Below are positions 28,428 to 62,470 of a stretch of 64,000 bases of DNA, piece by piece. This stretch comes from Botryllus schlosseri. Its lineage: Eukaryota. The notes beneath the pieces were generated by a model. It made no database searches and had not been told where the DNA came from. It saw only the letters and a list, made by a program, of their open reading frames with translations. Position numbers and translations under genes: made by a program. Each line of letters begins with the position of its first letter. The first letter of the stretch is position 1. The stretch is taken from contig CM119372.1 in NCBI GenBank assembly GCA_051294905.1, positions 21,020,001 through 21,084,000 on the forward strand, in the 5' to 3' direction.

Positions 28428-28518
28428 TCAATTGCGTGTTAAACCAGATATCATATATTTCCGACGAATGTTACAATTGAATACCATATCTGTTGAATAA
28501 ACCACTTGCTGCTTGTAT
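28428..28518 (-). pseudogene. Exon resembling the end of a ZP-N domain, followed by decayed sequence to ~27950
   Basis: tttacatttcag|A TAC... (R)YKQQVVYSTDMVFNCNIRRKYMISG; the phase-2 acceptor matches the upstream donor; the hydrophobic-F-x-C pattern resembles the last ZP-N strand. Confidence 0.45.
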
Positions 28519-29046
28519 CTGAAATGTAAAAGGGAAGTTTGTCAATTGCTAGTTATGATTCTGGTTCGTTTTATTAGTTGGTTATTATCAATTAAAAAAC
28601 CAAAGCATTCCGATAAGACGAAACGTTTGACTCATCGCCCCCTTATCAATCTAGACATATTTTAGTCGCTCCCTAAAGACTAGACCCATCAGACCCACCC
28701 ATCCTTATACTTTTTCGCATTATTTAAGTAGGTTGTATCCAATTTCTCAAGTATTCTTTTCTTGTATACCACTTCTACTTCCACCCTTCATTCCTCTCAA
28801 AATCGCCTTAAAGGGACGATATCGCCTACTTAGGGAACCACTGCCTACAGCCTAAAAATAACTGAGATTCATTCACTGAATGTCAAGTTACCGAATATAT
28901 CATAATTTAATGACAAGCGATGAAAATAAAGTGGCATGAGACAGTACGCGAATTCGATATATGACAAAGTGACAAAATTTACTAACGTAAATGCTATTAT
29001 TTTATACAAATGTTTGGCATTTTGGATTGTAATTACTTCGCTTCAC

Positions 29047-29467
29047 CTTCAACTAGCTGGAATTGGGCGTGCCCCGTTTATATTAGGCAACCTAACAATT
29101 CCATCGAGTATAGCCAGTGAAATCTGTATAGTTTGTTATTTCATAACATCACTGCGCAGTCAAACAAAAATCCGTCGCGACACGACTATTATATCTGATG
29201 CCAATTGATGATTGTTCGCGTGATTGAAACAGTTGGTGTCGTTAGTAATTCCCTTGATTGTGTACATTCCAAATGTGATGGCCATTTCATCAGCCTCAAG
29301 TTTCGCGCATACTGAGAATATATTGGTGAATTCGTTTTCAAAGAAAACCTGCATATTGGCACATTGGTTATTGACGAGGCAGTAACAGACGCAATGCCGA
29401 TACCCATCTTCGACACTTTGCCAACATCTAGAATTAGGCAGGCATCTGTAGTTGCGACATCAGCGTT
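29047..29467 (-). pseudogene. Decayed exon: EGF-like repeat running into a putative ZP-N domain
   Basis: catgcag|AA CGC TGA TGT... R*CRNYRCLPNSRCWQSVEDGYRHCVCYCLVNNQCANMQVFFENEF...; 421 nt fits phase 1 to phase 2 (AG|gtgaag) but has four in-frame stops. Confidence 0.55.
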
Positions 29468-29640
29468 CTGCATGTTGAAAATTACACATATGATTAATCA
29501 CAAGACACTTTTCATCGAGCACTATACTTGCGCAATGCGCACTATTCCTGTATATGATGGGGCGTATACATCATGCGTGCGAGTCCCAGTGCGATCAAAC
29601 AAATGAAGAGTTCGATATCATAAGTAAATAAAATACTTAC

Positions 29641-29757
29641 CTAATACGCATTGATCAGCCTGACGAACACGGCCAGCGTTACACTTGCATCGAACACTAC
29701 CGATGTTACTGGAGTACCGACATGTGGAATGCAATGGACACCTGCTACACGGGTTCT
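29641..29757 (-). CDS. Exon: EGF-like module (duplicate copy 2)
   Basis: ctttag|AG ... TTA G|gtaagt; NPCSRCPLHSTCRYSSNIGSVRCKCNAGRVRQADQCVL. Confidence 0.8.
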   Translation of the reverse strand, partial: RTRVAGVHCIPHVGTPVTSVVFDASVTLAVFVRLINAY

Positions 29758-30143
29758 CTAAAGTTGTAAATTATGAATAACAGTTACAGCACGTTATATA
29801 TTATGCTACGACTGATGATTCACTTAACGCCGTCTAACATGCATACCTACTCACATTTGTTATAACATTGGTTAAGAACAGGGGTGTCAAATTCAAATGT
29901 CCTCGTGGGACAATTTCCTGGTTTTTGTTGACGCCGCGGGCGCAGCATTGAATATGATATGCAGGATGTCTTGTGTCGTATATGCCTTATTTGACGGGAA
30001 GAAAATGGAAAAAGTCAGATTGAGACTGAGCTGATAGTAGCACTAAACTATTACCAAATAATTGAAAATCCAAATTTCGACGAGGGCCGCACAAAATGTT
30101 CTTGCGGGCCAAGTGGTTTACAAGGTGATTTATGTCATTAGTT

Positions 30144-30945
30144 TAAGCGATTTTTCACCTGAAAAATCAAAATTTTGACATTTTTAAACTTAAACTTAAA
30201 AAACTTAATTTTGACCAAATTTTGACTAACGTATGCAAATTAGCTGTTTTCCCACATAATGTTAGAATTGCACTACTTATCTTCATTTTTGATTGGAACT
30301 GTCTGTCCTTACGAAGTAGTTTAGCCTGAAATAACTTTTTTGACTCAAAAACGGACAAATTTTTACATGAAAAAACTTTATTTTAACGAAATCTGGCCGT
30401 ATGAAGAATTCCAGTAGTAACATCACATATTATGGTAGAAATAATAAAAAACTTGTAGTACAACGAATGATACTTTCCTACATTATCGAATAGAAAGTGT
30501 CTGTCCTTACTAAGTAGCTTGCCAAGAATGGAGAAAGAAAGTTGAATCCACTGAAGTTGCTGGTAACACACCATGTTGAAAATGGTGTCTACATCACAAT
30601 TTTTCATCACGCGCTTCCTGATATAAGAACCATGCAATGCCTACGCAGTTAGCATAATGCGGTACGTTGAGCATAACACCATGTCAACCTATTTGTTTCA
30701 TTTGAATGTTTATGATTCACAATGAGCAGACAATCGGCGGTCTACAACGGTAGGCCTATAAAGTAGGCTACAAGCTATAAACTGTCAAATGCTAAGTTCA
30801 CCGACAGTGCACAATCTACGATACAAACGAAATGCAGGTTGTAAAAAATGTTTGCCTTTGTAAAGAATTTTGACATTGTTTTCAACCTGACGCTACAATT
30901 TTGACAAAATTTTGACTTTCTTTGGCATGGCAAAAAAATCGCCCT
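30144..30945. mobile_element. TIR element, inverted copy of 10913-11758
   Basis: Reverse-complement similarity throughout; absent from the sister duplicate near 34770. Confidence 0.75.
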
Positions 30946-33448
30946 AGTCATTATAAAAGATTCAATGCAGCTAAATGACAACACTACCACTCAAATGCAG
31001 GACCTCAACTGCCGCACCCCAAAACCCCCAATTGGGGGGGGGCGAGCTCGAAGGGGGACCAAGATTATTTCGTGAATTAGCATAAATTATAGAGTATCTT
31101 TTGAAAATTTATGCAACTTTCAAAAATAAATATTTCGCGCTATGCGCGATTTCAAGGTGCCAAATATCATCATTTTTTGGTACTCTTCCCCCAAGAAAAG
31201 AACAAGAAAGATTTTTAGAAATGGACATATCGGCGTTGGCCAATACCGCGACGCGACGCACCAAGACATATAACAATTTAGGACATATTACATGCGACTC
31301 CAAGAAGTGTGCCAGAACGATCGGCAGCGTAAAAACCTTGGCCGAAAAGGACTGCCCTTACGCTGACCGAAAACTTCGTTATATATACAAAATACATATA
31401 GTTTTAATTGTCCATAGCCTAGGCGCCTAAATTACTGGCGCCGAATGTTCCTGTCTTGGTAATCTGAACCTCAGAAGACGAATTCCACTACTCAGTACGG
31501 CTGATTTCGTGGCAAAAGCGATCAACAAGATGAATGGGAGGGGGGGTCGGTCGGTTACCGGGGTCGGTTTATCACCCTGGGAGCCCAAGACCCAAGTTCT
31601 TTTGGGACCTGACTAAGTGCTGTTTCGTTCCTGTCATTGAGGGGTCATACCTTTACATCTCACTCAGCTCTACCGGTAAATCTGAATACGTCAGCAGAGA
31701 GGGGATAAAAATAGATAACAATATATATGCAATCCCCGATGATACTGCCCGATTCAATCATGAATTCATGAAATTTTTTGCGCTTCGCTCGTCTAGGCGA
31801 GAATGGGAGGCCCAATAAGCGGACACCCAATATTGATGACAAGTAGTCCCAAAGAGCGGGTAGACAAGGGGGGGTCTGGGGGCGAAGCCGCCCAGAAGTC
31901 CGGTTTATCATCCTATGGGGGGGCCAAGACCAACGTTTTCGGGGGGCTGACGAAGTGCTGTTACGGCCCTGCTCAAATGTATATTGGCTTTGAAAACATG
32001 CACAATCTGGGCAAAACAGCGACTTTCAAAACAACGAGTTCAAAATGGTGAGTCATTTATAATAGCGATTATCAAAACAGTGATTTTCATTATAGTGACT
32101 CATTCAGAGCGGTCAGACATTCATAATAGCGAGTATCAAAACAGAGCGGGACCTTTTAGCGAGGCATACGTAATAGTAAGTTTCAGAATCCCTATTGTCA
32201 TCATATCGACTCATTCAAAATACTCAAGGTTGGGGGTTAAGTTCAGTTACGGTCAGGTTTGCCTAAATGACTGGGAGTGGGTTTTGACACTATTTACACT
32301 ACTTTCTAGTTTGAATGACTCGCTATTATGACACTCGCGGTTTTGACAATGTGTTAGTTATTCGCTATTTCTATTTTCCATATTGGCACAGCAATGATGA
32401 AACTGAGAATGTTGGCTTTGTATAATATGCTGGTAAAAGTGAGTAAGCTAACATTCATCAGATTTTAGTGTCAGCCGTACACATCGCGATATGCTCGGTG
32501 GTAAGCAGTGAACATACACACGTTTTACATTGCTTTGCTGGGTTTCCCGATTTTGGTATTGGTTCTATACCCAGAAGGAAGATATGACTACATACGCAAA
32601 CTTTGAATACAATCAAATTCCAGTTCAGAAATATATTGTCGAAACTTGTGTGCAATTGCGAAGGATTAGCGGAATACATTTACTTTGAGAGTAGCTTGCC
32701 AATCGAATAAAGAACGCGCCTTCGCAACGGTTCGGTAGCAATAAATATGGGCGTTAATAATCGCCGAATAATAAAAACCCTCTCCAAATACGTTGATTTA
32801 CAAAAATCTATTCATTGAAAAGCTAAAACCTCAGATGCAAAAAGTTCGATCAAAGGCGAATAAGTAAACGCTCACCCGGCTCTCTCAGCGGATTAAACAA
32901 ACGTTTACAAAATTTAATCTAATCATGACATTCGTTCCAGCCGGAAGATTTTATTTCTTCGAGAGCAGGATTTCATCATCAAAGAGCCACAATGCCACAT
33001 ATGTCTGGCGCAGTGGTTCCCAACCATTGGGAAATTCCCCACTTGCGAAGAATCTAGCTAGGACCTATAGGTGTTTCTGGTCGGGAGCAGATGCACTTAC
33101 AAAAATAACTTACCAACAGTATATATACATATTTAAGGTGGCGCAACACTGAGATTACGTTGCATTGGGAGGTTTATCTTGATACACTTTCTTGGAGTAG
33201 GATATTATGTAAGTACATTTCCGGCTCTAAAAATTCAAAATTAATAATTCATAGTGATCAGTTGAAATACATTCATATGCATTTTGTGTTATAAATATGA
33301 TATGTATCTGATATTTGTCTTGAGGAGAGATTAGGGTCTGGCTTACTTATGCGCCCAAACCGAACTTCTTTGTTTTTGTCGAGTTTATATAGGCCTACGT
33401 ACCAAGTTTATCGTATTGCTAACAGCTTTCTGCTGAATCACTTTTAGT

Positions 33449-33852
33449 TAGGCTTGCATTTAAAACAAACAGTGTTTTAAAACACTTTGTTTAAAACATG
33501 TTAGTGTTTTAAACAAAGGCCTTTAAAAAAATTGTGTTTTTTTAAGTTGTAAAATTATGCCATAATTGTGTGAATACTTTCCAAAAACATGTTGCATGAG
33601 CATACGTACAATTACCACCCGATATAGCCGACTTTTATCGATATGGGATGGTTGGAACCCTCAAAATAGTCTGTTCAACATTAATAGTACAGATATTTCG
33701 TCAAAGGACCTATATCTACCCTATATTTTCAATTGTCAATGTCAATCCTCTATGTCGATCGTGACGCCATGGCCTAAAAAACATGTTGTAAATTAGGGCC
33801 TTGTTTTAAACATGTTTGTTTCAAACTGATTTTTGTTTTAAATGCAACCCTA
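33449..33852. mobile_element. hAT-type MITE (TAGGGTTGCA family)
   Basis: TIR TAGGCTTGCATTTAAAAC/GTTTAAATGCAACCCTA; TSD CTTTTAGT/CTTATAGT. Confidence 0.85.
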
Positions 33853-34227
33853 CTTATAGTGGGGAAATCAGTTGCGGAACAACTATAAAATCCGAATCTA
33901 GTCTGTTTTGAAAAAAAGTTACCTTTAACTTTGGACTATATTAGCCAAACCATTGGATCTAGATATCCATGAGTCAACTTGAGTTATAATCTGCCCAAAT
34001 TTTGCATAGACATTTCTATAAATACCATTGTTAGTTTGCGTTACGCTGGACAACTTATTACGTGTTATTTTATACCGCTTTTAGAAATACTGAAATCTAA
34101 TAAGTTAATCCAGTGCCGAGATGTGGTGAACGATATTAAATTCAATCCATTGATGGGGAGTCCCTGTGCGATCAAGCAAATGAAACAAAACAAAGATTTC
34201 GATGTCCTTGATATATAAAATACTTAC

Positions 34228-34341
34228 CTACGCATTGATCACCCAGACGAACACGACCAGCGTTGCACATGCATCGAACGATACCAATATTACTGAAGTG
34301 CCGACATGTGGAATGCCATGGACACCTGCTACACGGGTTCT
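34228..34341 (-). CDS. Exon: EGF-like module (duplicate copy 1)
   Basis: ctttag|AG ... GTA G|gtaagt; NPCSRCPWHSTCRHFSNIGIVRCMCNAGRVRLGDQCV. Confidence 0.8.
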   Translation of the reverse strand, partial: RTRVAGVHGIPHVGTSVILVSFDACATLVVFVWVINA

Positions 34342-35510
34342 CTAAAGTTGTAAATTATTATTACCAGTTATAACTCATTACATATTATGCTACGACTGAT
34401 GATTCACCTAACGCCGTCTGACGTGCATATACCTAATCACATGTGTTATAATACAGGTTAAAAACAGGGGTTTCAAATTCAAATGTCCTCGCTGGACGCA
34501 GCGGACGCCACGGGCTCAGCATGGAATATGATATCTAATATGTCTTTTGTCTTATATGCATTATTTGACGGGATGAAAAAGGAAAAAAAGTTATATTAAG
34601 ACTACGATCCAAGTCGGTTTTTAAAGTGAGTTTTGAAACTTTTCAAATCTGAAAAAGATAGTAGCACTTACATATTGTCAAATAATTGAAAATTCAAAAT
34701 TCAGTATTTCTACGAGGGCCGCACAAAATGTTCTCGCGGGCCGCGTGGTTGGCAAGTTGATACAATGTAATTAGATAATATTCATTGCAGCTAAATACAA
34801 CATTACTCAAATGTACGTTGGTTTTTTAAACATGCAGCATCCGGGCAAAACAGCTACTTTCAAAACAGTGTCTTCAAAATGATTAGTCACTTATAATAAC
34901 GAGTTTCAAAACAGTGTATTTAATTGTAGTGACTCATTCTGAGTAGCCAGACATTCATAATAGCGAGTATAGAAACATAGAGTGTCCTTTTAGCGATGCA
35001 TACGTAATAGTAAGTGTTAGAACACTGAGTGTCATGTTAACGACTCATTCAAAATACTCAAGGGTATGGGTTAAGTTAAGTTACGGCCAGGTTTGTTTAA
35101 ATGAGTGGGGGTTGTTTTTGACACTATTTACACTACTTTCTAGTTTGAATGACTCGCTATTATGACACTCGCGGTTTTGACAATCTGTTGGTTGGTCGCT
35201 ATTTCTACTTTCCAAGTTTAGAACAACAATGATGAAACTGAAAAGGTTGGATTTGTATAGCATGCTGGTAAAAGTGAGTAAGCTAACATTAACCAGGCTT
35301 TGGTATCAACCGTGCACATCGCTATATATTCGGAGGTAAACAAGCAACATACACACGTTTTGCACTGCTTTGCTGCGTTTCCCGATTTTAGTATTGGTTC
35401 TATACCCAGAAGGAATATCTGACTACATACGCCAACTTTGAATACAATCGAATTCCAGTTCAGAAATGCTGTCGAAACTTGCGTGCAATTTCACAGGATT
35501 AGCGGAATAC

Positions 35511-35593
35511 TTACTTTGAGAATAGCTTCCCATAGTCGAAAGTAACGCGCTCTCGCAACGGTTCGGTAACATTAATTCTAGTATTATTAATCG
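35511..35593 (-). CDS. Candidate exon (start of an SEA-like segment, or terminal exon)
   Basis: ttttcttattcag|CG ATT... INNTRINVTEPLRERVTFDYGKLFSK*; AA|gtaagt donor overlaps an in-frame TAA; the duplicate near 32680-32765 has lost its AG. Confidence 0.4.
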
Positions 35594-36127
35594 CTGAATA
35601 AGAAAACCAAATACGTCGCCAAATAAGTCGCCAAATACGTTGATTTATAAAAATAAATTGATTGACAAGCTAAAGCCTCCGATTCAAAAAGATCGACCAA
35701 AGGCGAATAATTAAACGCTAACCCGGTTCTCTCGGCGCATTAAACAGACGACGGCAAAAATAATTTATTCGTGACAGTCGTGCCAGCCGGCAGATTTTAT
35801 TTCTTCGAGAGCCGAATTTCATCATCAAAGAGCCACAATACCACATATTTCTAGCTCAGGGGCTCCCACCCGGTGGGAAATTCCGCACTTGTGCGGGATC
35901 TATAGATGTTTCTGGTATAGGAAACAGGCGCACTTACAGAAATAACCAACCTACAGTATATACATATTTAAGGTGCCGTAACACCGAGATTACGTTTGAA
36001 GTGAATGCAGACTATATAGGAATAAATCAAAAGTGGGTAATGACATAAAAAAGGTTAGGAGCTCCGGAGCGAGCCTGAGGTCCTGACCAATAAATAAAGG
36101 ATGCGATTTGAAGAATCAAACTCTTAC

Positions 36128-36259
36128 CTTTCTTGCAACCATTCATCAGTGATAAAGTGGTATCTTTGCACCGGCAGACGTAACTTTGGTGATAAAGATC
36201 CCAATATGGGTAGCACGCATCAGAATTTAAGCACTCTCGGTGGTCTCGACACGGATTTC
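36128..36259 (-). CDS. Exon: divergent EGF-like module 6
   Basis: gataag|GA ... AAA G|gtaag; NPCRDHRECLNSDACYPYWDLYHQSYVCRCKDTTLSLMNGCKK; 6 Cys, phase 1-1. Confidence 0.8.
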
Positions 36260-39200
36260 CTTATCAAATGATTAACGTATGAAATTATTCCTCATATGTT
36301 TCAGTATTGTCTGGCCATAGTTATTGAGATAAGCCATTCAGCGGACTCAAAGAAGACATGACAAATGATATAGATTATTGGAACATGGAAGGAATCCAGT
36401 GAAATCTACAAAGATGGGGATATCTAAAGATGAGACGACGACGTTGATAATGAATTGTATGTCTGATATAGGATAGGTATAGGCCTAGGATCTATTAGTC
36501 ATATAGTTTTGAGATGGTACTAAACATAATAACCAGGACCGAAACAGCAAAGACGCTTCCTTGCCAGTTCGGAAATTAATTGCGTTGGTGGGGATATCAA
36601 AAAGTACTATTTAAACCAGGGTTCGCCAACTCAAAACAGGCCGCGAGCAACTTTTCAAATTTCGTAGCGGCTGCGGGCCGCATGAATTCAATATCGATAT
36701 AAAATAGGCCACAAGGTCTAGCAACTGCTTTTTAAAACTTTACGTCAGTACAACGCTTTTCTCCCTAACATAGGCAATGGGCATAGTTACCACAAAAGAA
36801 GTAATATGAATACAAATTCAACAAAAATTAATGATTATCAATTTCATTTTACTCTGAACTCTGAGGTGTGCGCGATACCTGGCACTGCTGTTCAGCGACT
36901 ATGGAATTGATATTGGGCATAGCGAGAGACGTCACTAGCTAAAAACCATCTCCACGTAAAGCCTGATCATGTGGGGAAGCCCTAACCCGTTTTCTAACCG
37001 TCTCAGCCTTGGCAGTATACGAGAAACTGCCCGTCAAAGGCAATATGCCAATTCACATCAGCTGATTCTCCCTCGATGGAATGCTGTTGCCATCGCCAAA
37101 GCCGTTTTAGCTAGCGAGAAATAGTGATGCTGGGCACAGGAGAATAGCTTATTTTGAAACAACAACAAGAATATGCTGAAACTGTAATCATTTCAGCATA
37201 CAATTATTATATGGTTTATTATAGTCGAATGGTCCTCCGAGCGCGATTTAAGCGCAAAATATTTCCAATACCAAAGTCCCAAGAAGACTGACTGGACTTT
37301 GACCTCTTACCAATACCGAAACTGCTGCAAACTAAACCCCCAATCGGGGGGGGGGGAGTGAGCTCGAAAGGTGCATTACATCATTTCGGTGAATGAACAT
37401 ATATCACACGTCATGTTTTGACGACTCCCCAATGAAAAAATACGCAAAATTATAGAAAATAGAAACAGGCATTCGGCGTCGGCCATTACCACGCCACGAT
37501 ACATTGTATTAATGTATTAATGTGCAGGTGCACAACATAGTGGAGCTTATCGCCTTTTAAGGCCGTGTGCTCCGCGACACGAATTTCATAATGTTCAGAG
37601 GTCTTTGCTGTTTTTGTAATCTTGGGAACGTCATTCAATCTCTCTCGCAGTCATTCTTCATTCTCTCTCGCTCCCATGCGTCCCCATCGCAGTCATTGCT
37701 GCCGACTAGTACCATGGCTCACTTTGATTCTGGGCTTTTCAATGAACTACCATAGTAGTGAGGTCGGCGATGAGGAGCCCAGAGAAACCTCCGACACATA
37801 GAAGTTGGTCAGAACCGGGATTCGAACCAACGTCCATTGGTGTCGTGACCGACGCCACGATACATGAAGACATATGAAGTTACGGCCAATATGGACTCCG
37901 ACAAGTGTGCCAAAAGATCGTCTGCGAGAAAACCTTAGCCGAAGAGGATTGCCCTTATGTTGTCCGTAAACTTCGATGTATATAAGTCTAGTTGTCCATA
38001 GGTACTTAAATCGCTCGTGCCGAATTATCATGTCGTCGCAATCTGCACCCCACAGGACAAATAACATCCATTATAGAAAAATTATTTGCCAGTGAAGAAA
38101 TACCAATTTTGAATCGTGTGCTTACTTTAGTTTATTACGTTTATGCGTTTCAATATTTTTTGACTATATAGCGGACAAGAGGTACAAAATAGCAACATGT
38201 AACGAAGTAATTGTACCGACAGGCAAGCCCGAATATGTTTAATTATTAATTACGTGGCCTTCATTTTCCAAGACGACAGCTTACTCAGAGCTACTGGTAA
38301 ATCTGATTACGTGAGATGAGAGGATAAAAAGTTTACAGCGACATATATATGCAATTACCACCTATTGATTCATGCATTATAGAAAATTTCGGCACCTAGG
38401 GGGACCAGGCCACACAAAATTTGCTGATCATCGAAATCACACGACGGGGTTCTTGGGGACGAATCCGCCAGAAGTTTGGTTTATCATGCTATGGGCGCCC
38501 AAGACAATCGTTTTTAGGGGGACTTACGAAGTGCTGTTACGGCACTCCCTCTTTCCCATTTCCTTTATCACAGTCCTTACAATATGGGGGCGGCGCTTGA
38601 GCCCGATAATTATTGAAAGGGGGTGCTGGAGGAAAAAAGGGTTAGGAACCACTGCTTTAGACTATAAAGATATGTGTAAGAACACGCAAGTCAGTAGATG
38701 AACTACTTAGCCATGGATCTTTACTCACGAGAACAGCTGTAGCCATTTCCTAGGTCTCGCTCATCACAAACGCATTCGTAACCAAGCACAGAATCTTCAC
38801 TTAAAACGCACTTCGCTGTACTGTGGCAGGGATTATTGACGCAATAATCGATCTCTGTGAAAGTAAAGTTTTCCGCGTCAAATATAACGGTCTAATAATT
38901 ACACCGGTCTGCACTATTTTCGCGCCAGACTGTATTTGGGTCATTCTCATTTAATTTTGGGGCACTAAATCCGAATCTGGTATTATTTTGTTCCTATCAT
39001 GTCACATTTCGGGGATTACTTCTACTTTTTCGAGGCACTCAAGTATATGTTTCTATAGCTGCACTACAAAATTGGTTAGATTTTCAGACTTCTACTTCCA
39101 TGTGTACAGCTTCTCCCAAAATCTTTATAATTTGGAGTTTGAAATGTAGAAAGTAGTTTTGGGATAAGATTGCACCAATGTTATGAGTTGAATTATGAAA

Positions 39201-40466
39201 AGAACAATGACAAATAGCCACTTTATCACAGTATATAAATATAATCGCATAGATTAATTCATATTTGGTTAATTTGCGGGAAGATACATCTTATGATTTC
39301 GAAAGTTTTCCGGAAGTGTTGAAAGTGGGCGATGCTATTTGCCCACATTTGACGCTAGTGAGGTCATGAGGCCTTGGCAACGGGACGGGACGCCGAGTTA
39401 CTATTGCGTTACAGTAGCATAAGGCAAAACACGAAAATAAAACGTCGAAATATTTTTAAAAACATCACTAGAAGTTACTCAACACTAAGCTTTGGCTCTG
39501 TTATCTCAGTAGCAAAAAAACAAGGGCATTTGGATTAGGCCACTATTAACCACTTTGCTGGCCACCTTTTATGACTTGAGTTCTTCTACTCCATTCTGAT
39601 ATTTGTCATTATGTCATACGACCTCCTTGCTTCGTTTACAACCGTTTACAAACATAGGTCACAAAGGGTAGTAATTTGGGTCGCGACCGCACATGTAAAT
39701 TCACTGATTTTCTTGCGGCAAAATATTCTTCGCGCATAGCGCGTTATCCCGTGAATAGTTGGTGCATACCCACCTTTATGGGTGCTATACCCCATAATCG
39801 AGACACACAGAAGACACAGAGACACACTCATATTGTGCAGCAACAGCTCAGGTTTCATCAAAAATTCATTTAATAAAATAATTAATTTGTTGCTGTTATA
39901 CGCGCTCACTGAAGTTCTAAAAGAAAGTCAAAATTTGATTGATATATGAAATTCGCAGCGAAAAATCTCGACGTGATAAAGCAATTCTGAGCATAGAGCT
40001 AGAATTGGATTCACCAACCAAAAATTATCCTAAATCAATCATCAAAATGTTTGGCGCAATTTCATTTTTTGAAATTTGTATAGACCACTGTTATCACCGG
40101 CCCGGCCAATCAGCCTCCATAAAAATAGCGGTATCGACCAATTCCAGTCCTCCCAATGATGTCATTACTCCAACGATTGCTATAAGTGAGAGGGTCTTCA
40201 GTACTATCGATTTATAAAGAGCGGAGTGGGAGTTTAATTCCGCGCGGAAATGAAAAAAGTTGTAATTCCTAAGCTATAGGTTCAGCCAAGGATATATATA
40301 TCAGGGCTTTGGAGCAGCCGTAAATTTTAACTGCTCCAGCTCCGGCTCCGGAGCTCTCTTCTATCATACATTAGCTCCGTCTCCAGCTCCGGAGCCGCAT
40401 TATAACCACTGCTCCGGCTCCAGCTCCGGCTCCGGCTCTAAAATTATCGAATGGTTCTGTCTATAT

Positions 40467-42004
40467 CAGGGGTGGCCCGCAAATGTGGCCCGCGAGAGGG
40501 TTTAGCGTGGCCCGCGAGGTAATTTCCTATTATATTATCGAAAATGAATTGCTGAGATTGTGAACTTGCAATGCCAACCAAAAATTATAATTCTGGCTGC
40601 AACACTTGGGATGTTGATGACTAAAATATCGGTTCCGACGTATTGGCAGATCCAGGGTCCAGTCACATTTTGAGTAAATTGTCGTACATTACAATAAACT
40701 AAAATAGTAGCGAATTTTTTCTTGACGCTTCGCGTGTTTAATTGTCACACGATTTCTTGCTTGGTAGCCTACCCCCTACTGAAAATGAAAAAAACGTCTA
40801 ATTTACCCGATAGAGTATAACTGTATTCGCAATTACGGAAGAAAGTCTTCGCGTTTGCGCTCGCATAAAATCGTCTACGGTGAAATGTAGGCACAAAATG
40901 ATTGTCGCATATTATCGGAGACCTTCGATATCGATGTGTCCAGACGCCGAATAGTCGTGGCCTTGCAAACTGAGCCTAGCGGGTGGTATACAATAGACCC
41001 GCAATACTCTCCTAGTTTAGGGTTACCATATTTCTGTGACCCAAATTCCGGACACACTTTAGCGCCCACTAGTGGATTTCAAAATGAGTTATGACGTCAC
41101 GCTAGCAAATCTTCGCTCATAGACCAGAGGCGGTCACGATCCGGTTCAGGAGTATGTGACTGTGCGTTGTGTAACCGGGCCGGGAAGATGATGAGTTCGA
41201 AAATACAGGGACCGTAATTGTACATCGTTAAGTCGTGTTCATGTCCCATCGATAAGATTGTTCATCAGCCTTATGCTGGTGCGCACCACGGAGCTATATA
41301 ATCACCCCACATCCAGTGGTTTCCAACCTTTTATGGTCGCGACTCCATATCCAATTTGAAAATGTTTCGTGACCCAGATCAAAATTTGACGAGAAGTCAA
41401 TACCTTTGCCCAGACTTACTCACGGGCTATTTTGGACGCTGATTACGTTCAACATATTCGCGAACCCCAGAATAAAGGCAAACCACCCCCACGTTTTGAA
41501 CCATCATCGTTGAATAAAGCATTTACACGGCCTTAACGATCTCTAGGGAAATATCGTTCTTCTATAATTGTGATTACGGTTAGGCCTATTCCAGTGAATG
41601 AAGGTTGTTTTTATTTGTATTTTATTGCAGTTTTTGCGAGGGGGGTAGTCAACTTGATAAAATCAATAAATGTGATAGTAAATCACGTGCAGCGCGAAGA
41701 AAAATATCATGCATCACCATAAATATTCCCAAAAATAATGTTTTTATGTTGATTTACGAAAATATTATGATCTTACGCCAGGTCTTCAGAATTCCGGACA
41801 TTTGGCCTATTTTAGAAATTCCTCCCGGACGCTAGTTTGAACAGTGAAATTCCGGACATGTCCGGGAAATTCCGGACGTATGGCAACCCTATCCTAGTTT
41901 ATTTATAAACTTAGAAAATTTTACCCGCTTGGCGTGGCTAGTGGACCGCGCACTCGTTCGTCAATTTCATGTGCCCCTTTAGCCGGAAAGGTTGGCCATT
42001 CCTG
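40467..42004. mobile_element. hAT-type MITE nested in 40302-42437
   Basis: CAGGGGTGGCC...GGCCATTCCTG; perfect TSD GTCTATAT. Confidence 0.85.
41018..41891. mobile_element. hAT-type MITE nested in 40467-42004
   Basis: TIR TAGGGTTACCATA/TATGGCAACCCTA; perfect TSD TCCTAGTT; tccggac motifs. Confidence 0.88.
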
Positions 42005-43039
42005 GTCTATATAGATTACTAATCTACTAATAGGTTAGTTATCTATAGTCCGTCAGCCGTCAGTAACATCCGATGTAGCAACAAATACATATAGGTGCCG
42101 CCGTGCCGGCTTTTTACTTCATTCTGAATACTTGTCAATTGTCGACAACATCATAGTTGCACTAGAACGCAATTTACTCCATGCCATTGCTGTGCACAGC
42201 AATAAAATTCAGGCCTGGTGTTCAATTATGATAAATCAGCAGATGTGGTTGTTGCATATATAATAGCATCTTATGAAATAGGTCGGAGCCGGAGCTACTC
42301 CTGAAATAACGGGCTCCAGCTCCGGCTCCGGCTCCGGCTTAATTTTATGTAGAGCTCCGGCTCCGGCTCCAGCTCCGGTGAAAATGCTCGGCTCCGGGGC
42401 TCCGGCTCCGGGCTCCGGCTCCGGCTCCAAAGCCCTGATATATATGATATCATATATCATTGGTTCAGCTGAAGTTTTACTGTAATTAAATGTAATTGAT
42501 ACGGTATATACGTTTTCAGACTAGTGCTACGAATTACAAATTCTAATAGAAACTTGTCACATATTGATATCGACAGAAAAACATTAGCTCATATGCAAAA
42601 ATATGTCGCATTGGCGATGCCAGTATATATAGGCGGAACTTTCTGATGTCGGTGGGCTTTAGTCAGGGTTACCATATTTTGAGATCCGAAAAAGAGGAAA
42701 CTTTTCAAAAATTCTGAAAGCTCCACGACCGGAAAAGTAAACTGGTGATTTTGAACACTTTTCGACCGATCGTAATGTGTTGACTAAAAAAAGGTCACCA
42801 CTTTGAATCGGCTCCCGATACCGAGTGTTGTCTACAATAAAGTATTTAGAAATAAAGATACCAATGGTTTGTAACTGCATGGCAGCGCGGTAACTGCATA
42901 TCATGATCAGTATGTTAATGGAGTCTATGTTCGATATCGTGTAGTATTCGGTGATATTGAACCCTGATCACAGATGCTATGCAGTTGCTACCCCACCAGT
43001 TTCATTAGTAAAATCATTTCAGCACACGATTTGACTTGC

Positions 43040-43156
43040 CTCGACATGAACTTCCGTCTCCTTCGTAACCCTCCTTGCACTGGCAACGAAACCCGCTTGC
43101 GGACTCGATGCAAACAGCTTGACTATGACATGGCTCGTCCTCACACGGTAAGGACA
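43040..43156 (-). CDS. Exon: EGF-like module 5 (GC donor)
   Basis: cttgtag|TG ... CGA G|gcaagt; SLPCEDEPCHSQAVCIESASGFRCQCKEGYEGDGSSCR. Confidence 0.9.
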
Positions 43157-43219
43157 CTACAAGACAATCATGACCATTAGTCGGATTTCTTTAAATATTT
43201 CGCAACATCGAGTGCATAC

Positions 43220-43339
43220 GTCGACACACTTGCTTGCCATCTCCTTTGAAGCCGGTTTTACATCTGCATCGGAAAGAATCGCCGACAGGTTGGCAAGTAG
43301 CGTTGGCATGACACGGCTTCATGTCACACTGGGCTATTT
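43220..43339 (-). CDS. Exon: EGF-like module 4
   Basis: ttttag|AA ... CGA C|gtatgc; IAQCDMKPCHANATCQPVGDSFRCRCKTGFKGDGKQVCR. Confidence 0.92.
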
Positions 43340-45076
43340 CTAAAATTTATAAGTTGTATAAAGTTGCCATAAATCAAGGGTATTGAATGATCACGAATTC
43401 AGTAGTTATTCTAAATAAAGGTTCCTTGTGTAGGTTTAAATCAACATAGCGACGACGACTGTAATAACGAGCCGCCGCAACCGCAATATTTCAATATCGA
43501 CAGTGGTTCTTAAAACTTTTTAGGAAGCGACTAAAATTGTAGTCTTATATACATCTCGCGACCCAAACCACACACGCGAAGGATATACGTTTCTAATGTC
43601 AGTGTGATGAACCAGACCAATGAACGTATGGTAGGCTTTTATTAACAATATCCCGACTAGCGCCGACACAATTTTATTAACAAGTCCCGACTGAGCGCAT
43701 AGACGTAAGAAACGGATGGCGTCTGCCGAAGAGAGATTGTATCATGTTCCTATTCTCAAAGCTCCGGGAGCTGAACTGGTATTCAAGCATTGGAAAGATA
43801 TGCTTGTTAGTTTTATCAAAGCCGCGGACGATCGCCGTCGTCAGTCTTCTGCGTCAACCTCGTAGTTGGACAAGCGAGGAATAATGAATGGTTACCGGGA
43901 AACACGTCAGTCAGTATGCACTCTAAACGAAAAAGGTGTGTATACACATACAAATTTCCGAAAAGGGTGGTACGCGGAAACAGAACCTAACTCAGAATTA
44001 TATCGCGGCCATATATCCTACGTGTCAACGTGCATGCAAAATTAGAATTTGAATTTTGCACTCGAATAATACCGCGGTATAAGTCTGGGATAGGTACTGA
44101 TTTCGTGTGCCATGGGTATTCATATCCGTATATCAAGGGTGGTACACGGGGTGGAAATACGCACTCTTTTTGCTCAGAGTGTGCTACGTTTTCACGGACA
44201 TGTATAGGGAATAGAGGTTCAGAAACCAGTTTCACGCTGCGCAGTTCTATGACCCATAATAATTCATTACAAAAAAGTCAGTGAGTCAGTGAGGTTGATG
44301 TCAATGGAATGTCCCCTACATTGTTATCCTATGCGCTTTTTTTTTAATTCCTCGCTATGCGTATGTCAAAGGTTTACAGCCTTTTCTTATATGCACGAGC
44401 TCTCTGCAGAAAATTTATAAGCTCTCTGAACCCTGGATCATTGAAATTGGCAATTTAAGATACAAACCCAGCGATAACCAACAATGTTCGCCCTCATAAT
44501 AATATTCAGCCAAACCGCCGCAGCTCAAACCATGAGTTGGAGGGACCTCGTAGGTCGGTCCTAATTATTTTTAAAACAACACAATGTAAAGTATATTTGC
44601 ACAGATTAATTTAAATGGGAATTTTCCTCCGTCCTCGCGCGATTTAGTGTCATCGTGTTACGGTTATCCACCTGACTCCCCCCACAAAATATATATATAT
44701 GTATATAAGATGCATAATATACAGAATTGATCCCAACTGTATTCGTAATTAGGGTGGCGCGTTATAATCCTAATATCGAGTGTAAAAATAGCCTGACAGG
44801 TTGAATGCAAGTTGATGACCCATGCAACCAAGACGCCTATCTCCTTCCATATGATTTACGGTGAGAAAATTGGTATTTGCTTAAATCACGTAACTGCATG
44901 GCCAACATCATTGACGAGAAATAGCGGAAGCATCATGACGAATCACATTTGCGCTACCAATTATGGCGTATTCGTAATGTTAAAAGCTGATATGCTTTTT
45001 TGAACTCAGCCTCGCCATTTCAAGGTAATTAAATGCTGAGAATTTCATAATCAATCGTGCCTATATGATCACTTAC

Positions 45077-45196
45077 TCCGGCAACGAAAGCCATTGCCCT
45101 CATATCCCCGTGCGCAGGTACACGAATAGGAGTCATCTTCGGTGTGACGACATATTGCAAATCTATGACACGGGTTGGTTTTACACTGATTCGTCG
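45077..45196 (-). CDS. Exon: EGF-like module 3
   Basis: tttcag|CG ... CGG A|gtaagt; TNQCKTNPCHRFAICRHTEDDSYSCTCARGYEGNGFRCR. Confidence 0.92.
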
Positions 45197-45262: not shown

Positions 45263-45379
45263 CCCGGCATGTTATTCCGTCTCCTTCGTATCCATCGCGA
45301 CACACACAGCGATGGTCATTTGCCGAAGGTAAACAAAAGGCTTTGATGTGGCATGGCGTTCCTTCGCATGGCAATGGCA
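45263..45379 (-). CDS. Exon: EGF-like module 2
   Basis: aattag|TG ... CGG G|gtggg; PLPCEGTPCHIKAFCLPSANDHRCVCRDGYEGDGITCR; phase 1-1. Confidence 0.9.
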
Positions 45380-45444: not shown

Positions 45445-45564
45445 AGTGACAAAACTTGATTCCGTCTCCTCGGAGACCGTCATTACATTTACATGAGAAA
45501 TCATCATCGTTGTTTACGCATGAAGCGTTGACGTGACAAGGATCCACATCACATGGCAGTCTTC
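45445..45564 (-). CDS. Exon: EGF-like module 1
   Basis: ctacag|GA ... CAC T|gtaag; RLPCDVDPCHVNASCVNNDDDFSCKCNDGLRGDGIKFCH; 6 Cys, phase 1-1. Confidence 0.9.
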
Positions 45565-46980: not shown

Positions 46981-47188
46981 ATATCAGCGGTACTTTCTGT
47001 TCCCTCTCTTGTCGATTCCGGTTCTGCGTCTAGGTCCATCAACAGAGTCGTCATCTCAGGAGGCACGGCCGCCAGCGAAGAAGTGATAACTTCCGTTTCG
47101 GTTTCTACCGAGCTTGGAGAGGTCATAGACGCCTCGTCGATTATCCCTTCGGTCGCAGAGTTCGTAGGCTTTGTCGAAGTGACATTGC
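46981..47188 (-). CDS. Exon: Ser/Thr/Glu-rich mucin-like segment, 3' end interrupted by a hAT MITE
   Basis: ctttcag|GC AAT... GNVTSTKPTNSATEGIIDEASMTSPSSVETETEVITSS...EGTESTAD; phase-1 acceptor; the original exon end and GT donor lie at 45879-45888 beyond the insertion. Confidence 0.8.
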
Positions 47189-47439
47189 CTGAAAGTATAG
47201 CAAAACGACTGATAGCTAAATCCATAGGCATGGCCGGGTGAAATCGAAAGGTTCAAATATAAATAACTAGCGATCGACTGCATTTCAAAACAGAATAAGC
47301 AGGTTCTCGGTAAATCTCGCCTGGGCACACTCAGCTACCCTTTATTGCTATACATACCATGAAGTGAATATATTTTGATTCCGTAGCTGCCGACTTATAG
47401 CACTGCCTACTTGTAAGCTTTTTAAGACACCGCCCAGGT

Positions 47440-48249
47440 CAAGGGTTCTTAAAGTATGGGTCACAACCCAAACATGAGTCGCAAAGGGTATAATGTTGGG
47501 TCGCGACGGCACCAGAGCGATCGTGAAATTCTTGCAACGTAAAAATTTATCCGCGTGATTTCCTTATACATAGCCGAGGTCACTGTGTTGGTACTATAGC
47601 CAATGATCAAGACACGCAGAAAAGTTGTTACTACAGTATGGCTTGTTCATGAAAATATGCGACCTTAGAATGAGGCTACACAATTTAGTTTGAATTCTTG
47701 ATGAGATTTGTCTGACATTGGTTTCTCTGGAAAAAGCCGTCGAAGACCATTGGGATACTTTAGTGTAGGCGTGTGCAACGGGCGGGCGCGATGTACAGGT
47801 CCGCCCTTTTGGTGCCGGAACCTATGAAGACCTGAAGTTTTGGCCAACATAAGATTGGGCAAAGTGCAGTGCCAAAAATATCGACAGCGATAGAACCTTG
47901 GTCAACATTGACCATCGCAGGTTGGCCAAAACCTTCGATATTGATATGTCCGGTCGTCGAAATGGTCGGCACCGAATAGTCACGTCCTGTACTCTGGGTG
48001 GACAGTAGCACAGATGCGACCCCCGCAGAGAAAAAATACACTCAAATTTGAAATCGCGTGCGTCAGACATGTTTGATAGATCTGCGTTGCGTACAACTGC
48101 TGTCTGCGCATTCTCTATGTCATGTATGCCCGTAAAAACATAGCGCATCAATATTAAAAATGTATACTTTTAGATATGTGGGGCTTGGGTCGCAAGATGC
48201 CATTACAAGTCAGATTTGGGTCGCGGTCTAATAAGTTTAAGAACCCCTG
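47440..48249. mobile_element. hAT-type MITE splitting a SINE
   Basis: CAAGGGTTCTTAAA/TTTAAGAACCCCTG; gggtcgc motifs; SINE halves on both sides; no clear TSD. Confidence 0.75.
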
Positions 48250-48595
48250 GCTTAATGAATAAGATGGCGAGGAGGAGCTTAGATGAACCTCCAACACTTC
48301 GACCTCGGTTGCACTATAACCAATCGGTGTTATGTAGCTGTGATGGATTATACCACTACGCCAGCTCGTAACAAACTTGGAAGGTAATTTCATGGTGCAC
48401 AGTTAAATTAGATCGTGCGATTTCAAAAGCCTGCGTGTGTGGTATTCACGTGAGCAATAGATATAAAGACAAGTATTTGAATATGAACATAACGATACCA
48501 TATGCATTGTGACGTCAAATTTGAACAGTGAACCCTTCCAAAACTATAGAAATATCGTGTGCACGGATGATATCCACGATTAGTACAAGCGCTAC

Positions 48596-48732
48596 CTGAA
48601 CAAGGCGATATCTGGCAGAATTCCCACGGTATTTTAGGGTGCATTGTGAAACACCACGGCTTCTCGTCGGATCCAGCAGGATTTCGGCAGTAGTTTTTGA
48701 CTAAACCGTCCGCGAGATAATTGCCAGGAGTC
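48596..48732 (-). CDS. Exon: second half of kringle C
   Basis: cttcacag|G ... TCA G|gtagc; TPGNYLADGLVKNYCRNPAGSDEKPWCFTMHPKIPWEFCQISPCS. Confidence 0.92.
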
Positions 48733-48763
48733 CTGTGAAGTACAGCAGTCTAAAACTCTAGAG

Positions 48764-54674: not shown

Positions 54675-54891
54675 CACGTATGTAAATGTGGCGATTGGGC
54701 AATCCAATTTTGACAGGTACGTCCGTTTTCAGTGGTAGAGATATATCCCCTATAACTGCTTCCTTTGTCGGCAGCGTCGTAACATTCAATTGCAGGAGGC
54801 ATTGATAACGATATAGTATTAGTCATGGACGTTTCAAAATCCGGAAAATCTGACGGTGGCGTTGTTTCGCTTTCAGGCGAAGTGGTTTCGT
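54675..54891 (-). CDS. Exon: Ser/Thr/Pro linker plus first half of kringle C
   Basis: catacag|AC GAA ... ACG TG|gtaact; DETTSPESETTPPSDFPDFET...IECYDAADKGSSYRGYISTTENGRTCQNWIAQSPHLHT; paralogous to 58996-59308. Confidence 0.93.
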
Positions 54892-58119: not shown

Positions 58120-58256
58120 CTGAGCATGGAGATATCTTGCAGAACTCCCATCGAACAGCATGATTAGTCGTGTAGCACCACGGCCTTTGGTCTTCAGGGT
58201 TAGTATTTCGGCAATAGTTCTTCTCCAAGCCAGCCATAGGTAACTGTTCGGGAATC
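58120..58256 (-). CDS. Exon: second half of kringle B
   Basis: tttcgcag|G ... TCA G|gt; [45 protein letters not shown]; phase 2 to 1. Confidence 0.93.
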
Positions 58257-58995: not shown

Positions 58996-59308
58996 CATCT
59001 ATCATGAGCGTGTGGCGTTTGGGCCGACCAATTTTGGCAGGTATATCCGTTTTCAGTAGTAGAGATAAATCCCCTGTAACTCGTTCCGTTGTCGGCAGAG
59101 TCGTAGCATTCATTTTCAGGAAGCGTTGCTGTCGTTATAGTAGTTGTTGTTGTTGTTGTTGTTGTTGTTGTGGTGGTGGTGGTTGGGGTTGCTGTTGTTG
59201 TTATTGTTGTCGTTGTTGTTGTTTCAGTTGTCGGGGTTTCCAAATCCGGAAGATCTGTAGAGGATATTGACGCGGTAGTGGTTTTCGTCAACGGTGATGT
59301 GGTTTCGT
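58996..59308 (-). CDS. Exon: poly-Thr mucin-like linker plus first half of kringle B
   Basis: cattcag|AC GAA ... AGA TG|gtaata; DETTSPLTK...T-run...[42 protein letters not shown]; 313 nt, phase 1 to 2. Confidence 0.93.
59129..59231 (-). repeat. Coding (ACA/ACC)n trinucleotide repeat encoding poly-Thr
   Basis: gttgttgtt... run inside exon 58996-59308. Confidence 0.9.
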
Positions 59309-60238
59309 CTGAATGAGAATAAAGAACCATTATCTACAACATTTCACCGAATATGGTATAGCCTACACTACACCAAAACAGAGTAAAGACGCCGCAGTAG
59401 TCCATGACCAGGAATAGATACACAGGATGATACAAATCCTAACATGCAGCCCACAAGTTGGATTTGCTGCGACCTGCCAATTCTCTTCGCATACGTCAAG
59501 CCAGTCATTGAGATTCACGACAAAATCAGAAATTTACCATTCCCCGTTCGGCGTTAACACATTGCTACCGGTACTCGAGATATTACACGTGTGGCTTTCC
59601 AATCCCCTTTTACGGAGAAAGTACTTTCACAATAGATTTATCGCCGCACGCGAAGCACATATTTGACGCATATCACTTAAGCGGAGATGAATCTAAAAAC
59701 GGGACATATAACGGCACTCTTTTGTACCAATACAAAGCCGTTATATTACATACGTCCGAAGCTTTTGCGAACGTGCACGGGCGTCCTTGAATCGGCACTT
59801 TTTTCACAAAACCTTTTGTCAGACAGAGTCAGGAAGAGTGCACGGTTGATCATCTTTGAGGTGGATGAAAAAGCACATTTTATTATCTCAAATAGGAAGG
59901 GTTTGATAAAGCCTTGAATGGAGCTTGTAGCAATGTTTTTCTGATCTATTCACTGCTCACTTTGCTCACAGCGCTTATGCAGCTCACCTTAACGGAACCT
60001 CGTACCACAGCACGCACCGCCGAACCGTTCTTAACGAACCTGTTGAATGATTTATATCGAACGGATCAAGATTTTACATCTATATTACTCGTCAACATTT
60101 GTGCACTTGCACAGGCCTAAAATGCATCATATGGCTGATAATTTTATATGGGGCTTGTGTGATTATCTCTTACTACTATCTCTCTCTCTAATAGTTTCCC
60201 TAAACGCATGAGCGATCTCGTCTTCTTGTTGTTGTGAT

Positions 60239-61927
60239 CAGTGTTGCCAATTTAGCGATTTTGTCGCTAGATCTAGCGATTTTTCATTCGGTCAAGCGAC
60301 AAAAAATATCGATCTAGCGACTAGCGATAAATCTAGCGACTTTTGAAAAGTATTTAGCGATTTTCTAGCGATTTTTTTCACAAATATCTGATACCAATCA
60401 GTTTTGAGCAGCAAACATCATGGACGTTCACCATATCTTATGCACGCCACAGCGTCAGCACGCATCGCCGATTTGCATTCAGGTCGCGTGCATGGACATG
60501 AACGTCTGTACTGACTTTCTTGGTCATGGGAGCGAAGTTGGCCATCACTTTTCCAGCCATAAAAATCGCCAAATCCGCCAAGATCCTGGCCAATTGACCC
60601 CTAATACGAGCAATCACAATCATGCTCGTCCAATGAAATTTGCTATAGATTATACAAGGTCCGATATGCGAATTAATTCTTTACGCCCACGTCGGACGAA
60701 TGTGTAGGATTCCTTCCCTCCAAAACGGAAACCGCGAGCTACAAGATAACCGAGGAGAAAACTATTGTGCATCGGACCTACGTGAGCTGTAACAGTACTA
60801 ACACTGTTCGTACGAAGATCGAGATCATACGGGGAACGGGTTTAAATCGCCCTCCCCCAAATTGCTCGAATACAGAGTTTTATATCTGATTCACGTCAGA
60901 TAAATAAAATAATAAACGATTACGTCGCGTAGGCTACTTTTGATACTAACACAAAATGTAACAACACTCTGATACTCAAATAACCAAAAATGAAATCACG
61001 AGTTTCTATGCGTGCTGTCGGATAACACAAGAAGACTCTTAAATAGACTTTTGACAATAACTTTCTTCGAACCAAGCTCTATTCAGGATAATCACGCTAC
61101 TTATGCGGACAAATGTCATACGTGATAATTTATATAACATTGATCAGATGGATGGACACTTGGACAGGGATATAGAAATATGATTGGAAGGTCAGCCGCT
61201 GTAAGTAGCGATATATACTTAGCGGGTCGGCGCTCCTATTATTTTCTAAATTGCACGTCGCTACTTATAGTGGTCGGCGAACCCGGTGCGAGTCATGTCG
61301 TGTTCAAGTAGCCTATACTCCCACCCAGTTAAGCGAAGTTTAGCACTTTTCCCCAATTATCAGTATATCGCATCGCGTATTCACGGACGCATCGAGCAAG
61401 GCACATTTTCTATATCTAGGACGGTCAGCAGCAGTTTGTGTTACGCCTCTGTATAATGAGTGGTTATGACTGCAAACCTGGTCAGTGGTTACGCAGAGGG
61501 ATCTGGTTTGTTGAAATGTACCGCATAGTTCGTCCCGTTTTGAGATGACTGACAATCTGACATGAATTGTGCGTATTATGAACTCGAATTATGATACGGT
61601 TACCATATAGGTCCTCCTTTAGGAGGATTTGTCCTCCTTTTTCAGGAAATCGAAAATGTCTTCCGAGAACGCCTAAATGCCCTCCTCTTTGGTAATTCGT
61701 CATTCTTTATAGCTTTGACAGTCAGGTTAATGGACAGGCACAACTAAAAACGCCATAAATGACGCGAAATCTGCAATGCGGATGTACGTGTGGGTCTTTC
61801 AACAACTTTAGCAATTACTTCAGATTTAGCGACTTTTTCTAGCGATTTTGTTTCAAGATTTAGCGACATCTAGCGATTTTCGACACAAGTTTTAGCGATT
61901 TTTGTCCATCCGGAGTTGGCAACACTG
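60239..61927. mobile_element. hAT-type element with (TAGCGA)n subterminal arrays
   Basis: TIR CAGTGTTGCCAA/TTGGCAACACTG; GTTGTGAT on both sides, with 4 extra nt (CATG) on the right. Confidence 0.88.
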
Positions 61928-62336
61928 CATGGTTGTGATTGTGCGACGTGCGTGCACGTATGTATTAGCACCCACGTCTTGTGACTTGTTGGAGCAATAG
62001 GGATTAGGCTAGTCGATGCAACCGTTATTTTGTATTTCAGTTTGCTCATTTATTACGGTATTTAACCTATGAATAAATGCCAAGTTGCACAGGGCTATAC
62101 AAATACAGTTCCTACGTAGATTAGCACTTTAGCAGTCTTACATATGAGTGAGTGATGGATCGCCGTTTTATATAGGCCGACATAATGAACTCTGAATTCG
62201 TTACTCGATTCATAATAACTGCAGCGCCTGATGCTGTACTTCTATCATCTTTCAAAATGCAGTGACTTCGATCATGCCTCATACTTTGAAAATTCGACTG
62301 TACTTGACCTGAATCGTGTCAAAATGTGCTAGTAAC

Positions 62337-62470
62337 CTGGACATGGTGATATCTTGCAGTACGCCCACCGCACGTTTGGATTCGTCGTGTAACACCACGG
62401 CTTATCTTCAAAGTCGGGATTTCTGCAGTAGTTGTTCATCAATCCCGCTGCAGGAAATTTACCGGGAGTC
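62337..62470 (-). CDS. Exon: second half of kringle A of the minus-strand kringle-mucin-EGF gene
   Basis: tttcacag|G ... CCA G|gt; TPGKFPAAGLMNNYCRNPDFEDKPWCYTTNPNVRWAYCKISPCP with the kringle NYCRNPD/PWCYT/WxYC motifs; phase 2 to phase 1. First-half exon not found in the window. Confidence 0.93.

Follow-up and report, generated by a model that had tools for sequence, protein, structure and literature searches.

A probable kringle, mucin-like and EGF-array mosaic gene in a 64,000-nucleotide stretch of Botryllus schlosseri DNA

The stretch of DNA analyzed here (hereafter the window) comprises 64,000 nucleotides of contig CM119372.1 from Botryllus schlosseri. It resembles animal DNA: G+C content is approximately 40%, CpG dinucleotides are not depleted (observed/expected ratio of 1.06), and short repeats are abundant. 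On its minus strand lies a chain of 15 exons that runs from position 62470 to position 29641 (approximately 33 kb) and encodes kringles, Ser/Thr-containing linkers, a mucin-like spacer, and an array of EGF-like modules. Joined, the exons form an open frame of 738 codons, free of stops and frameshifts, and splice phases agree at all 14 junctions, the introns that split kringles being in phase 2 and all remaining junctions in phase 1. We placed the exon boundaries by eye so that they fit the frames, and this agreement is thus partly selected. Thirteen introns are of the GT-AG type and one, after EGF5, is GC-AG. All 70 cysteines of the chain fall within modules, with 54 contributed by the nine EGF modules and 16 by 2.5 kringles. 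The locus is a real mosaic gene that is probably expressed.

Exons and encoded modules

The exons, in the order of the predicted transcript and with phases given as phase in/phase out, are

62337..62470, minus strand: second half of kringle 1 (phase 2 in, 1 out; Pfam Kringle, E value 1.9e-15); the first half is outside the window
58996..59308, minus strand: 65-residue Thr-rich linker (65% Ser+Thr) and first half of kringle 2 (phase 1/2; Pfam Kringle, E value 7e-8)
58120..58256, minus strand: second half of kringle 2, with Asn at position 54 (phase 2/1; Pfam Kringle, E value 2.7e-13)
54675..54891, minus strand: 34-residue Ser/Thr/Pro linker (38% Ser+Thr) and first half of kringle 3 (phase 1/2; Pfam Kringle, E value 6e-7)
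48596..48732, minus strand: second half of kringle 3, lysine-binding residues lost (phase 2/1; Pfam Kringle, E value 5.5e-14)
46994..47188, minus strand: mucin-like acidic spacer of 64 residues (phase 1/1; 33% Ser+Thr, 13 Asp/Glu)
45445..45564, minus strand: EGF1 (phase 1/1; passes the curated Pfam EGF cut-off)
45263..45379, minus strand: EGF2 (passes the curated cut-off; read depth of its bin)
45077..45196, minus strand: EGF3 (passes the curated cut-off; read depth of its bin)
43220..43339, minus strand: EGF4 (passes the curated cut-off)
43040..43156, minus strand: EGF5, with a GC donor (passes the curated cut-off; a record of read run X2 stops aligning at 43040)
38729..38854, minus strand: EGF6 (passes the curated cut-off)
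36128..36259, minus strand: EGF7, six cysteines with atypical spacing (cysteine pattern; no Pfam match)
34228..34341, minus strand: EGF8, with a short first loop (weak match to the MSP1-type EGF model, E value 0.024)
29641..29757, minus strand: EGF9, a tandem duplicate of EGF8 (weak match to the MSP1-type EGF model, E value 0.0013)

The original prediction, made from the letters of the window, had described exons with matching splice phases that encode three kringles, a mucin-like stretch and at least six EGF modules, and no protease domain. The matching phases and the open frame, the mucin-like exon, and the EGF modules, nine in number, hold up. With respect to the kringles, all five half-exons match the Pfam Kringle model (PF00051) with E values of 2e-15 to 6e-7, and kringles 2 and 3 are complete, each with its six cysteines spread over two exons; the first half of kringle 1 and the 5' end of the gene fall beyond position 64000, and only 2.5 kringles thus lie inside the window. 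The gene starts upstream of the window, and further kringles may be encoded there. Pfam scans of the minus strand from end to end (one with stops read as X, others of 82 open reading frames of at least 48 aa and of 108 of at least 40 aa) gave no match to trypsin, astacin, SEA, or ZP domains, in agreement with the predicted absence of a protease domain at this sensitivity for the part of the protein encoded in the window, which excludes the N-terminus. The window yielded no transmembrane domain either, and the candidate C-terminal tail described later gives no clear helix.

Among solved structures, the closest single-kringle chains are plasminogen K4 and apolipoprotein(a) KIV, with E values of 3e-19 to 1e-18, and the kringles are of the plasminogen/apolipoprotein(a) type. 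The available part of PMC11111404 names Asp54, Glu56, Tyr62, and Arg69 as the residues that bind ligand in KIV8 of apolipoprotein(a). Kringle 1 has all four, and, with Asp also accepted at position 56 and Trp at position 62, the full lysine-binding set is absent from kringle 2 (Asn54) and kringle 3 (Ala54, Ser56, and Pro69). Judged from these residues, kringle 1 is the only one of the three to keep a predicted lysine-binding site.

The curated EGF cut-off is passed by six of the nine EGF exons (EGF1–6). A cysteine-spacing pattern for these modules, which was defined post hoc with the sequences already in view, matches ten of 3,556 stop-free runs on the minus strand, that is, the nine exons and a segment at 29459 that is considered later, and none in 30 shuffled strands. 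An O-fucose spacing motif is present in four of the nine EGF modules and a hydroxylation motif in one of nine (EGF1). EGF8 and EGF9 are 89% identical in exon DNA and 84% in the flanks, a difference that is not significant (p 0.18), and they are separated by seven nonsynonymous and four synonymous codon changes. The EGF8 exon has been duplicated in tandem together with approximately 1.8 kb of intron (29581-33161 and 34158-35996), and the lower copy is broken up by repeats at approximately 30142-31971.

Continuity of the transcript and the question of a catalytic domain

Reads were aligned to positions 28760-48759 at 90% likeness. Repeats dominate the alignments, and we used ten of 30 depth bins, the remainder being repeat-dominated apart from three exon-free bins that we read as repeats. 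In run X1, position 47086 of the mucin-like exon is covered to a depth of 58.1 by a record whose end lies 94 letters off, at 46993 if distance is counted as for record 15 of run X15. This end corresponds to the predicted donor of the mucin-like exon together with the single G that it shares with the start of EGF1. In bin 44768-45434, coverage of EGF2 and EGF3 alone at 58.1 would give a mean depth of 20.64, and 20.7 was observed; run X15 is at single-copy depth in the same bin. In five repeat-poor exon-free bins, X1 depth is 0.7–2.8. X1 indirectly supports the splice from the mucin-like exon to the EGF array. Farther along, record 23 of run X2 aligns from 43040 to 43273 and continues into 154 unaligned letters from exactly the GC donor of EGF5. 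Position 47086 is itself variable (A/C), with the C form in all four read runs and both forms in X2.

The junction between kringle 3 and the mucin-like exon is predicted from its phase, from the acceptor of the mucin-like exon, whose score of 10.2 ranks with the highest that we obtained for this gene, and from the absence of a compatible start exon. Two ATG frames between kringle 3 and EGF1, at 47908 and 46231, were considered as a start exon; both are hydrophobic, and neither has a phase-1 donor. The frame at 47908 sits within a repeat. Neither of the 1.4 kb introns that flank the mucin-like exon thus contains a compatible signal-peptide exon, which supports a single gene. We infer from these features that kringle and EGF exons are joined in a single transcript. 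The donor of the mucin-like exon is the sole phase-1 GT among the seven GT dinucleotides in that frame, which adds to the selection behind the phase agreement.

Several observations weigh against this assignment or against the picture of a noncatalytic protein. The donor of the mucin-like exon is weak, the frame of this exon runs into a stop at 46967 if left unspliced, and the frame of kringle 3 reads through to a stop after 57 codons; the link from kringle 3 to the mucin-like exon is read from the DNA. The distance of 94 letters in X1, if read in the other direction, leads to 47179. X1 depth is 6.95, 10.1, and 26.6 in the exon-free bins 32762-33428, 39432-40098, and 43434-44100, which we read as repeats and in which X15 is raised as well. 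In X2, the bins of EGF2+3 and EGF4+5 have depths of 3.15 and 3.48, respectively, versus 9.7 expected for each from the depth of the mucin-like exon. None of the 15 read joints listed coincides with a predicted junction; a further 946 joints fall outside this listing. The raw-read run X23 is too shallow to be informative (depth of approximately 0.2–1.7 in the bins used), X15 is a DNA-like run, and the assignment of X1 and X2 to RNA is a guess. A search for orthologues with the exon of the linker and kringle 3 gave 11 candidates, none of which passed. Lastly, the unseen N-terminus could carry an enzyme domain.

On the basis of the two read-through stops, the weak donor, and the X2 depths at about one third of the expectation, the locus could be divided into two adjacent genes, of which the first, an apolipoprotein(a)-like kringle gene that includes the mucin-like exon, would end at a read-through stop and the second would encode the EGF array. 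The record end and depth in X1 link the mucin-like exon to EGF2–3, the acceptor of the mucin-like exon is strong, and its flanking introns offer no compatible start exon; we consider two genes quite improbable. An N-terminal catalytic domain, such as an astacin, on the same exon chain would turn the protein into a protease with kringle and EGF modules as targeting arms. The 5' end of the gene lies outside the window, astacin accessory domains include kringle, EGF, and ZP (in the part of PMC9848320 available), and a three-kringle protease is reported from urochordates in the accessible text of PMC6337849. On the other hand, the window gives no hint of an enzyme, and chains of the plasminogen group end in a trypsin domain, according to the part of PMC9643190 at hand, with none found downstream here. 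This alternative is unlikely, and we retain the single noncatalytic gene as the preferred assignment.

The downstream end and neighboring features

Two further segments on the minus strand lie downstream of EGF9:

29163..29467, minus strand: decayed tenth EGF exon, formerly described as ZP-like (phase-1 acceptor, in-frame TGA, 99 open codons; cysteine spacing)
28451..28518, minus strand: candidate terminal exon (phase 1; 22 residues followed by TGA; outside the read-aligned stretch)

The acceptor at 29467 lies 173 bases past EGF9 and, in phase, reaches a TGA (29462-29460) two codons in. The TGA is followed by 99 open codons, a length reached by 13 of the 3,556 minus-strand runs; the first 35 of these codons show EGF cysteine spacing, and the remaining 64 hold two cysteines 26 codons apart. 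Against a profile of the other nine modules the segment scores 0.6 bits, which is equaled by 139 of 2,000 shuffles and is not significant; we call it an EGF because of its cysteine spacing, position, and acceptor. An X1 contig spans the TGA with no differences, and the stop is therefore not a lone assembly error. In both X1 and X2, the region is covered by unspliced contigs only, at a depth of 3–7 as in introns, and the X1 bin that includes it has a depth of 4.77 versus 23.0 predicted, although low depth is weak evidence by itself. The tenth EGF exon is probably absent from the main mRNA.

The original prediction had placed a ZP-like remnant at 28.4–29.4 kb and had compared the gene with the EGF and ZP proteins of the ascidian vitelline coat. 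The searches do not support this part. No Pfam ZP match was obtained at 28.4–29.5 kb, including in 24 frames, in scans run without a ZP positive control that could miss a decayed half-domain, and under the same limit neither a ZP-C domain downstream nor a ZP domain anywhere on the minus strand was found. The segment gave a single match among solved structures (E value 1.9, unrelated), only two unrelated repeat proteins among 1.84 billion representative sequences, and six candidates in a word-indexed search, none of which passed; its neighbors in the ESM Atlas are EGF-like clusters at 0.76–0.77, below the useful level. Single-sequence folds were uninformative, with predicted local distance difference test (pLDDT) scores of 44 and 46. 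Another Asp-Cys follows the tenth EGF segment in a different frame, and its spacing may resemble that of ZP-N.

A coat protein of the HrVC120 type, with an EGF array and a ZP module whose ZP-N remains would be found at 29.2–29.5 and 28.5 kb, recently lost or broken in this allele, is accordingly rather unlikely. HrVC120 has an incomplete EGF ahead of its ZP domain (available part of PMC9265791), and here the tenth EGF precedes 64 open codons with two cysteines in an open run of uncommon length. A complete ZP module has a ZP-N with four cysteines plus a ZP-C (PMC3543715, in the portion available), and against this reading stand the lack of ZP matches in Pfam, solved structures, and representative sequences, the lack of a ZP-C downstream, the TGA confirmed in the X1 contig, and the intron-like coverage. 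The C-terminal ZP module of vitelline-coat proteins was not found in these scans, and the gene probably does not encode a coat protein of the HrVC120 type. What remains of the predicted matrix or coat protein is a kringle, mucin-like, and EGF extracellular mosaic; its ZP element and the vitelline-coat comparison do not stand.

The same TGA could be the first lesion of a decaying gene, that is, a transcribed pseudogene or a relaxed copy. The seven nonsynonymous versus four synonymous changes between EGF8 and EGF9, exon identity not above that of the flanks, and the loss of lysine-site residues in two of three kringles would fit such decay. Fifteen exons over 33 kb without a stop or frameshift, 70 of 70 cysteines kept, intact splice sites, and exon-shaped X1 coverage oppose it, and we regard decay of the whole gene as very improbable.

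For an intact gene with a skipped tenth exon, 28518 is a candidate end. It is the strongest of 396 AG acceptors in 21600-29630. The original prediction seems to have used another frame of this exon, one that ends at 28428; the phase after EGF9 gives a short tail instead. The predicted 22-residue tail is moderately hydrophobic, with a peak mean hydropathy of 1.15 over 11 residues, and is too polar, and not long enough, to form a clear membrane anchor. The 28518 exon lies outside the read-aligned stretch and is a candidate end only, a further point against the structure proposed here.

Convergent to this gene, at 19972-21559 on the plus strand, is a second kringle gene, of which exons 19972-20134 and 20220-20359 encode a linker and one kringle. 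They are 70–76% identical in DNA to the minus-strand kringle exons and keep all four lysine-binding residues. A phase-1 exon that follows (21218-21559, plus strand) encodes a 113-residue beta-rich domain with no match in Pfam or the PDB and no firm one in the Atlas; other exons of this gene were sought in the window and were not found. Further frames without a Pfam match are present at 17684-17935 (minus strand; 84 codons, plausible phase-0 acceptor and donor, protein-like composition), at 16151-16528 (long overlapping frames on both strands, in which the hydrophobic stretch of the minus frame may be mere antisense), and at approximately 27030-27150 (minus strand). The last of these may resemble the C-terminal portion of reverse transcriptases of the Penelope type. 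Within the gene, a short element at 37757-37849 lies under thousands of partly aligned X23 RNA reads and is probably a high-copy transcribed repeat; it contains no tRNA gene and no Rfam match. A tRNA scan found no gene, and a scan of 27–39 kb gave no meaningful Rfam match.

Interpretation and comparison with known systems

With moderate confidence, we interpret the locus as one gene for a noncatalytic extracellular glycoprotein with at least three plasminogen-type kringles, Ser/Thr linkers, a mucin-like hinge, and nine EGF modules arranged as a rod, to which the 28518 exon probably adds a short tail; the protein would act as a tether or adaptor. The gene would have been assembled from phase-1 exon cassettes that were duplicated and shuffled, and the tenth EGF exon would have decayed and come to be skipped in splicing. 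Kringle 1, together with any upstream kringles, may grip partners that expose lysine, and kringles 2 and 3 may bind other partners or act as spacers only. O-glycosylated linkers and the EGF rod, with the acidic mucin-like hinge between them, could provide reach and protease resistance to a protein whose most likely role is that of a tether or an adaptor in the matrix. Secretion, glycosylation, and function are suggested by the modules. A bolder scenario, to which we assign a low probability, is that an invertebrate, apolipoprotein(a)-like, protease-free kringle array, its linkers O-glycosylated, arose independently and joined an EGF and ZP coat gene that is now losing its ZP module. In that case, the tenth exon and the frames behind it would be a fossil of this module and the 28518 tail its replacement. 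The encoded protein would grip lysine as a tether in a coat or in adhesion, and its convergent paralogue on the plus strand would join the same kringle to another domain.

Searches for the architecture elsewhere were weak for animal proteins, and an architecture that we did not recognize is not thereby shown to be new. In a kringle/EGF alignment profile, of which only EGF columns were kept, 24 of 393 candidates match and none of the 24, seven of which were rescanned, lists Kringle or ZP; none of 80 metagenome kringle loci has an EGF by our own profile, and no description of a kringle–mucin–EGF-array architecture was found in the open-access literature searched. Marine invertebrates commonly have mosaics of phase-1 modules that are specific to one lineage, and the surprise is therefore modest once ZP is removed. 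The gene looks like an uncharacterized product of ordinary domain shuffling. The locus nevertheless displays ongoing turnover of exon cassettes: one EGF exon was duplicated recently, another has decayed, and a paralogue of the kringles lies in inverted orientation. In the available portions of the literature consulted, protease-free kringle arrays are scarce (apolipoprotein(a), hedgehog apolipoprotein(a), and flatworm Tmed-krg1), and a kringle-first architecture with an EGF rod would add an invertebrate example with a predicted lysine-binding site.

Membrane mucins combine a proline/threonine/serine-rich (PTS) region with SEA, EGF, and transmembrane segments; the protein described here differs in having no SEA match in Pfam and no clear transmembrane helix in its tail. 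The best matches to the EGF profile (the 24 of 393 candidates) are invertebrate EGF-array matrix and adhesion proteins, such as Tmed-ap1 and fibrillin-like and nidogen-like proteins. Many of their EGF modules are calcium-binding, whereas here the hydroxylation motif is confined to EGF1 of nine. The nine EGF exons also recall HrVC120/HrVC70 and CiVC57, in which a long EGF array is followed by an incomplete EGF (PMC9265791, as far as its available text goes); unlike them, this gene yielded no ZP module, and kringles and a mucin-like exon are not part of their architectures as described there. The plasminogen/HGF group and its activators (tPA, HABP2, HGFAC, and FXII) share the kringle type, and the activators combine EGF and kringle (PMC6337849 and PMC9643190, in the parts available). 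The activators have EGF ahead of kringle, with a trypsin domain last, whereas in our chain the order of EGF and kringles is the opposite and no trypsin domain was found.

The closest parallels for the kringle half are two. Apolipoprotein(a) of primates and hedgehog has tandem plasminogen-type kringles, Ser/Thr-rich linkers, and no active protease, and the KIV8-type residue set recurs in kringle 1; its interkringle stretches carry O-glycans, as stated in the accessible part of PMC11555715. In contrast to apolipoprotein(a), our chain continues past the kringles into a mucin-like exon and an array of nine EGF modules; no protease-like domain was found, and the single unpaired cysteine of apolipoprotein(a), used in its linkage to apoB, has no counterpart among the 70 module cysteines of the 15-exon part. 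Orthology with apolipoprotein(a) is unlikely. The flatworm anchor-cell protein Tmed-krg1 likewise has several kringles, with no protease domain described in the available portion of PMC9229212, in which knockdown animals are nonadhesive and a lysine-binding tether is proposed. Compared by description, Tmed-krg1 differs in its six kringles and predicted membrane segments, and no EGF array is described for it in that portion. By analogy, the kringle half of the protein may work like apolipoprotein(a) or Tmed-krg1, and the protein as a whole would belong to neither.

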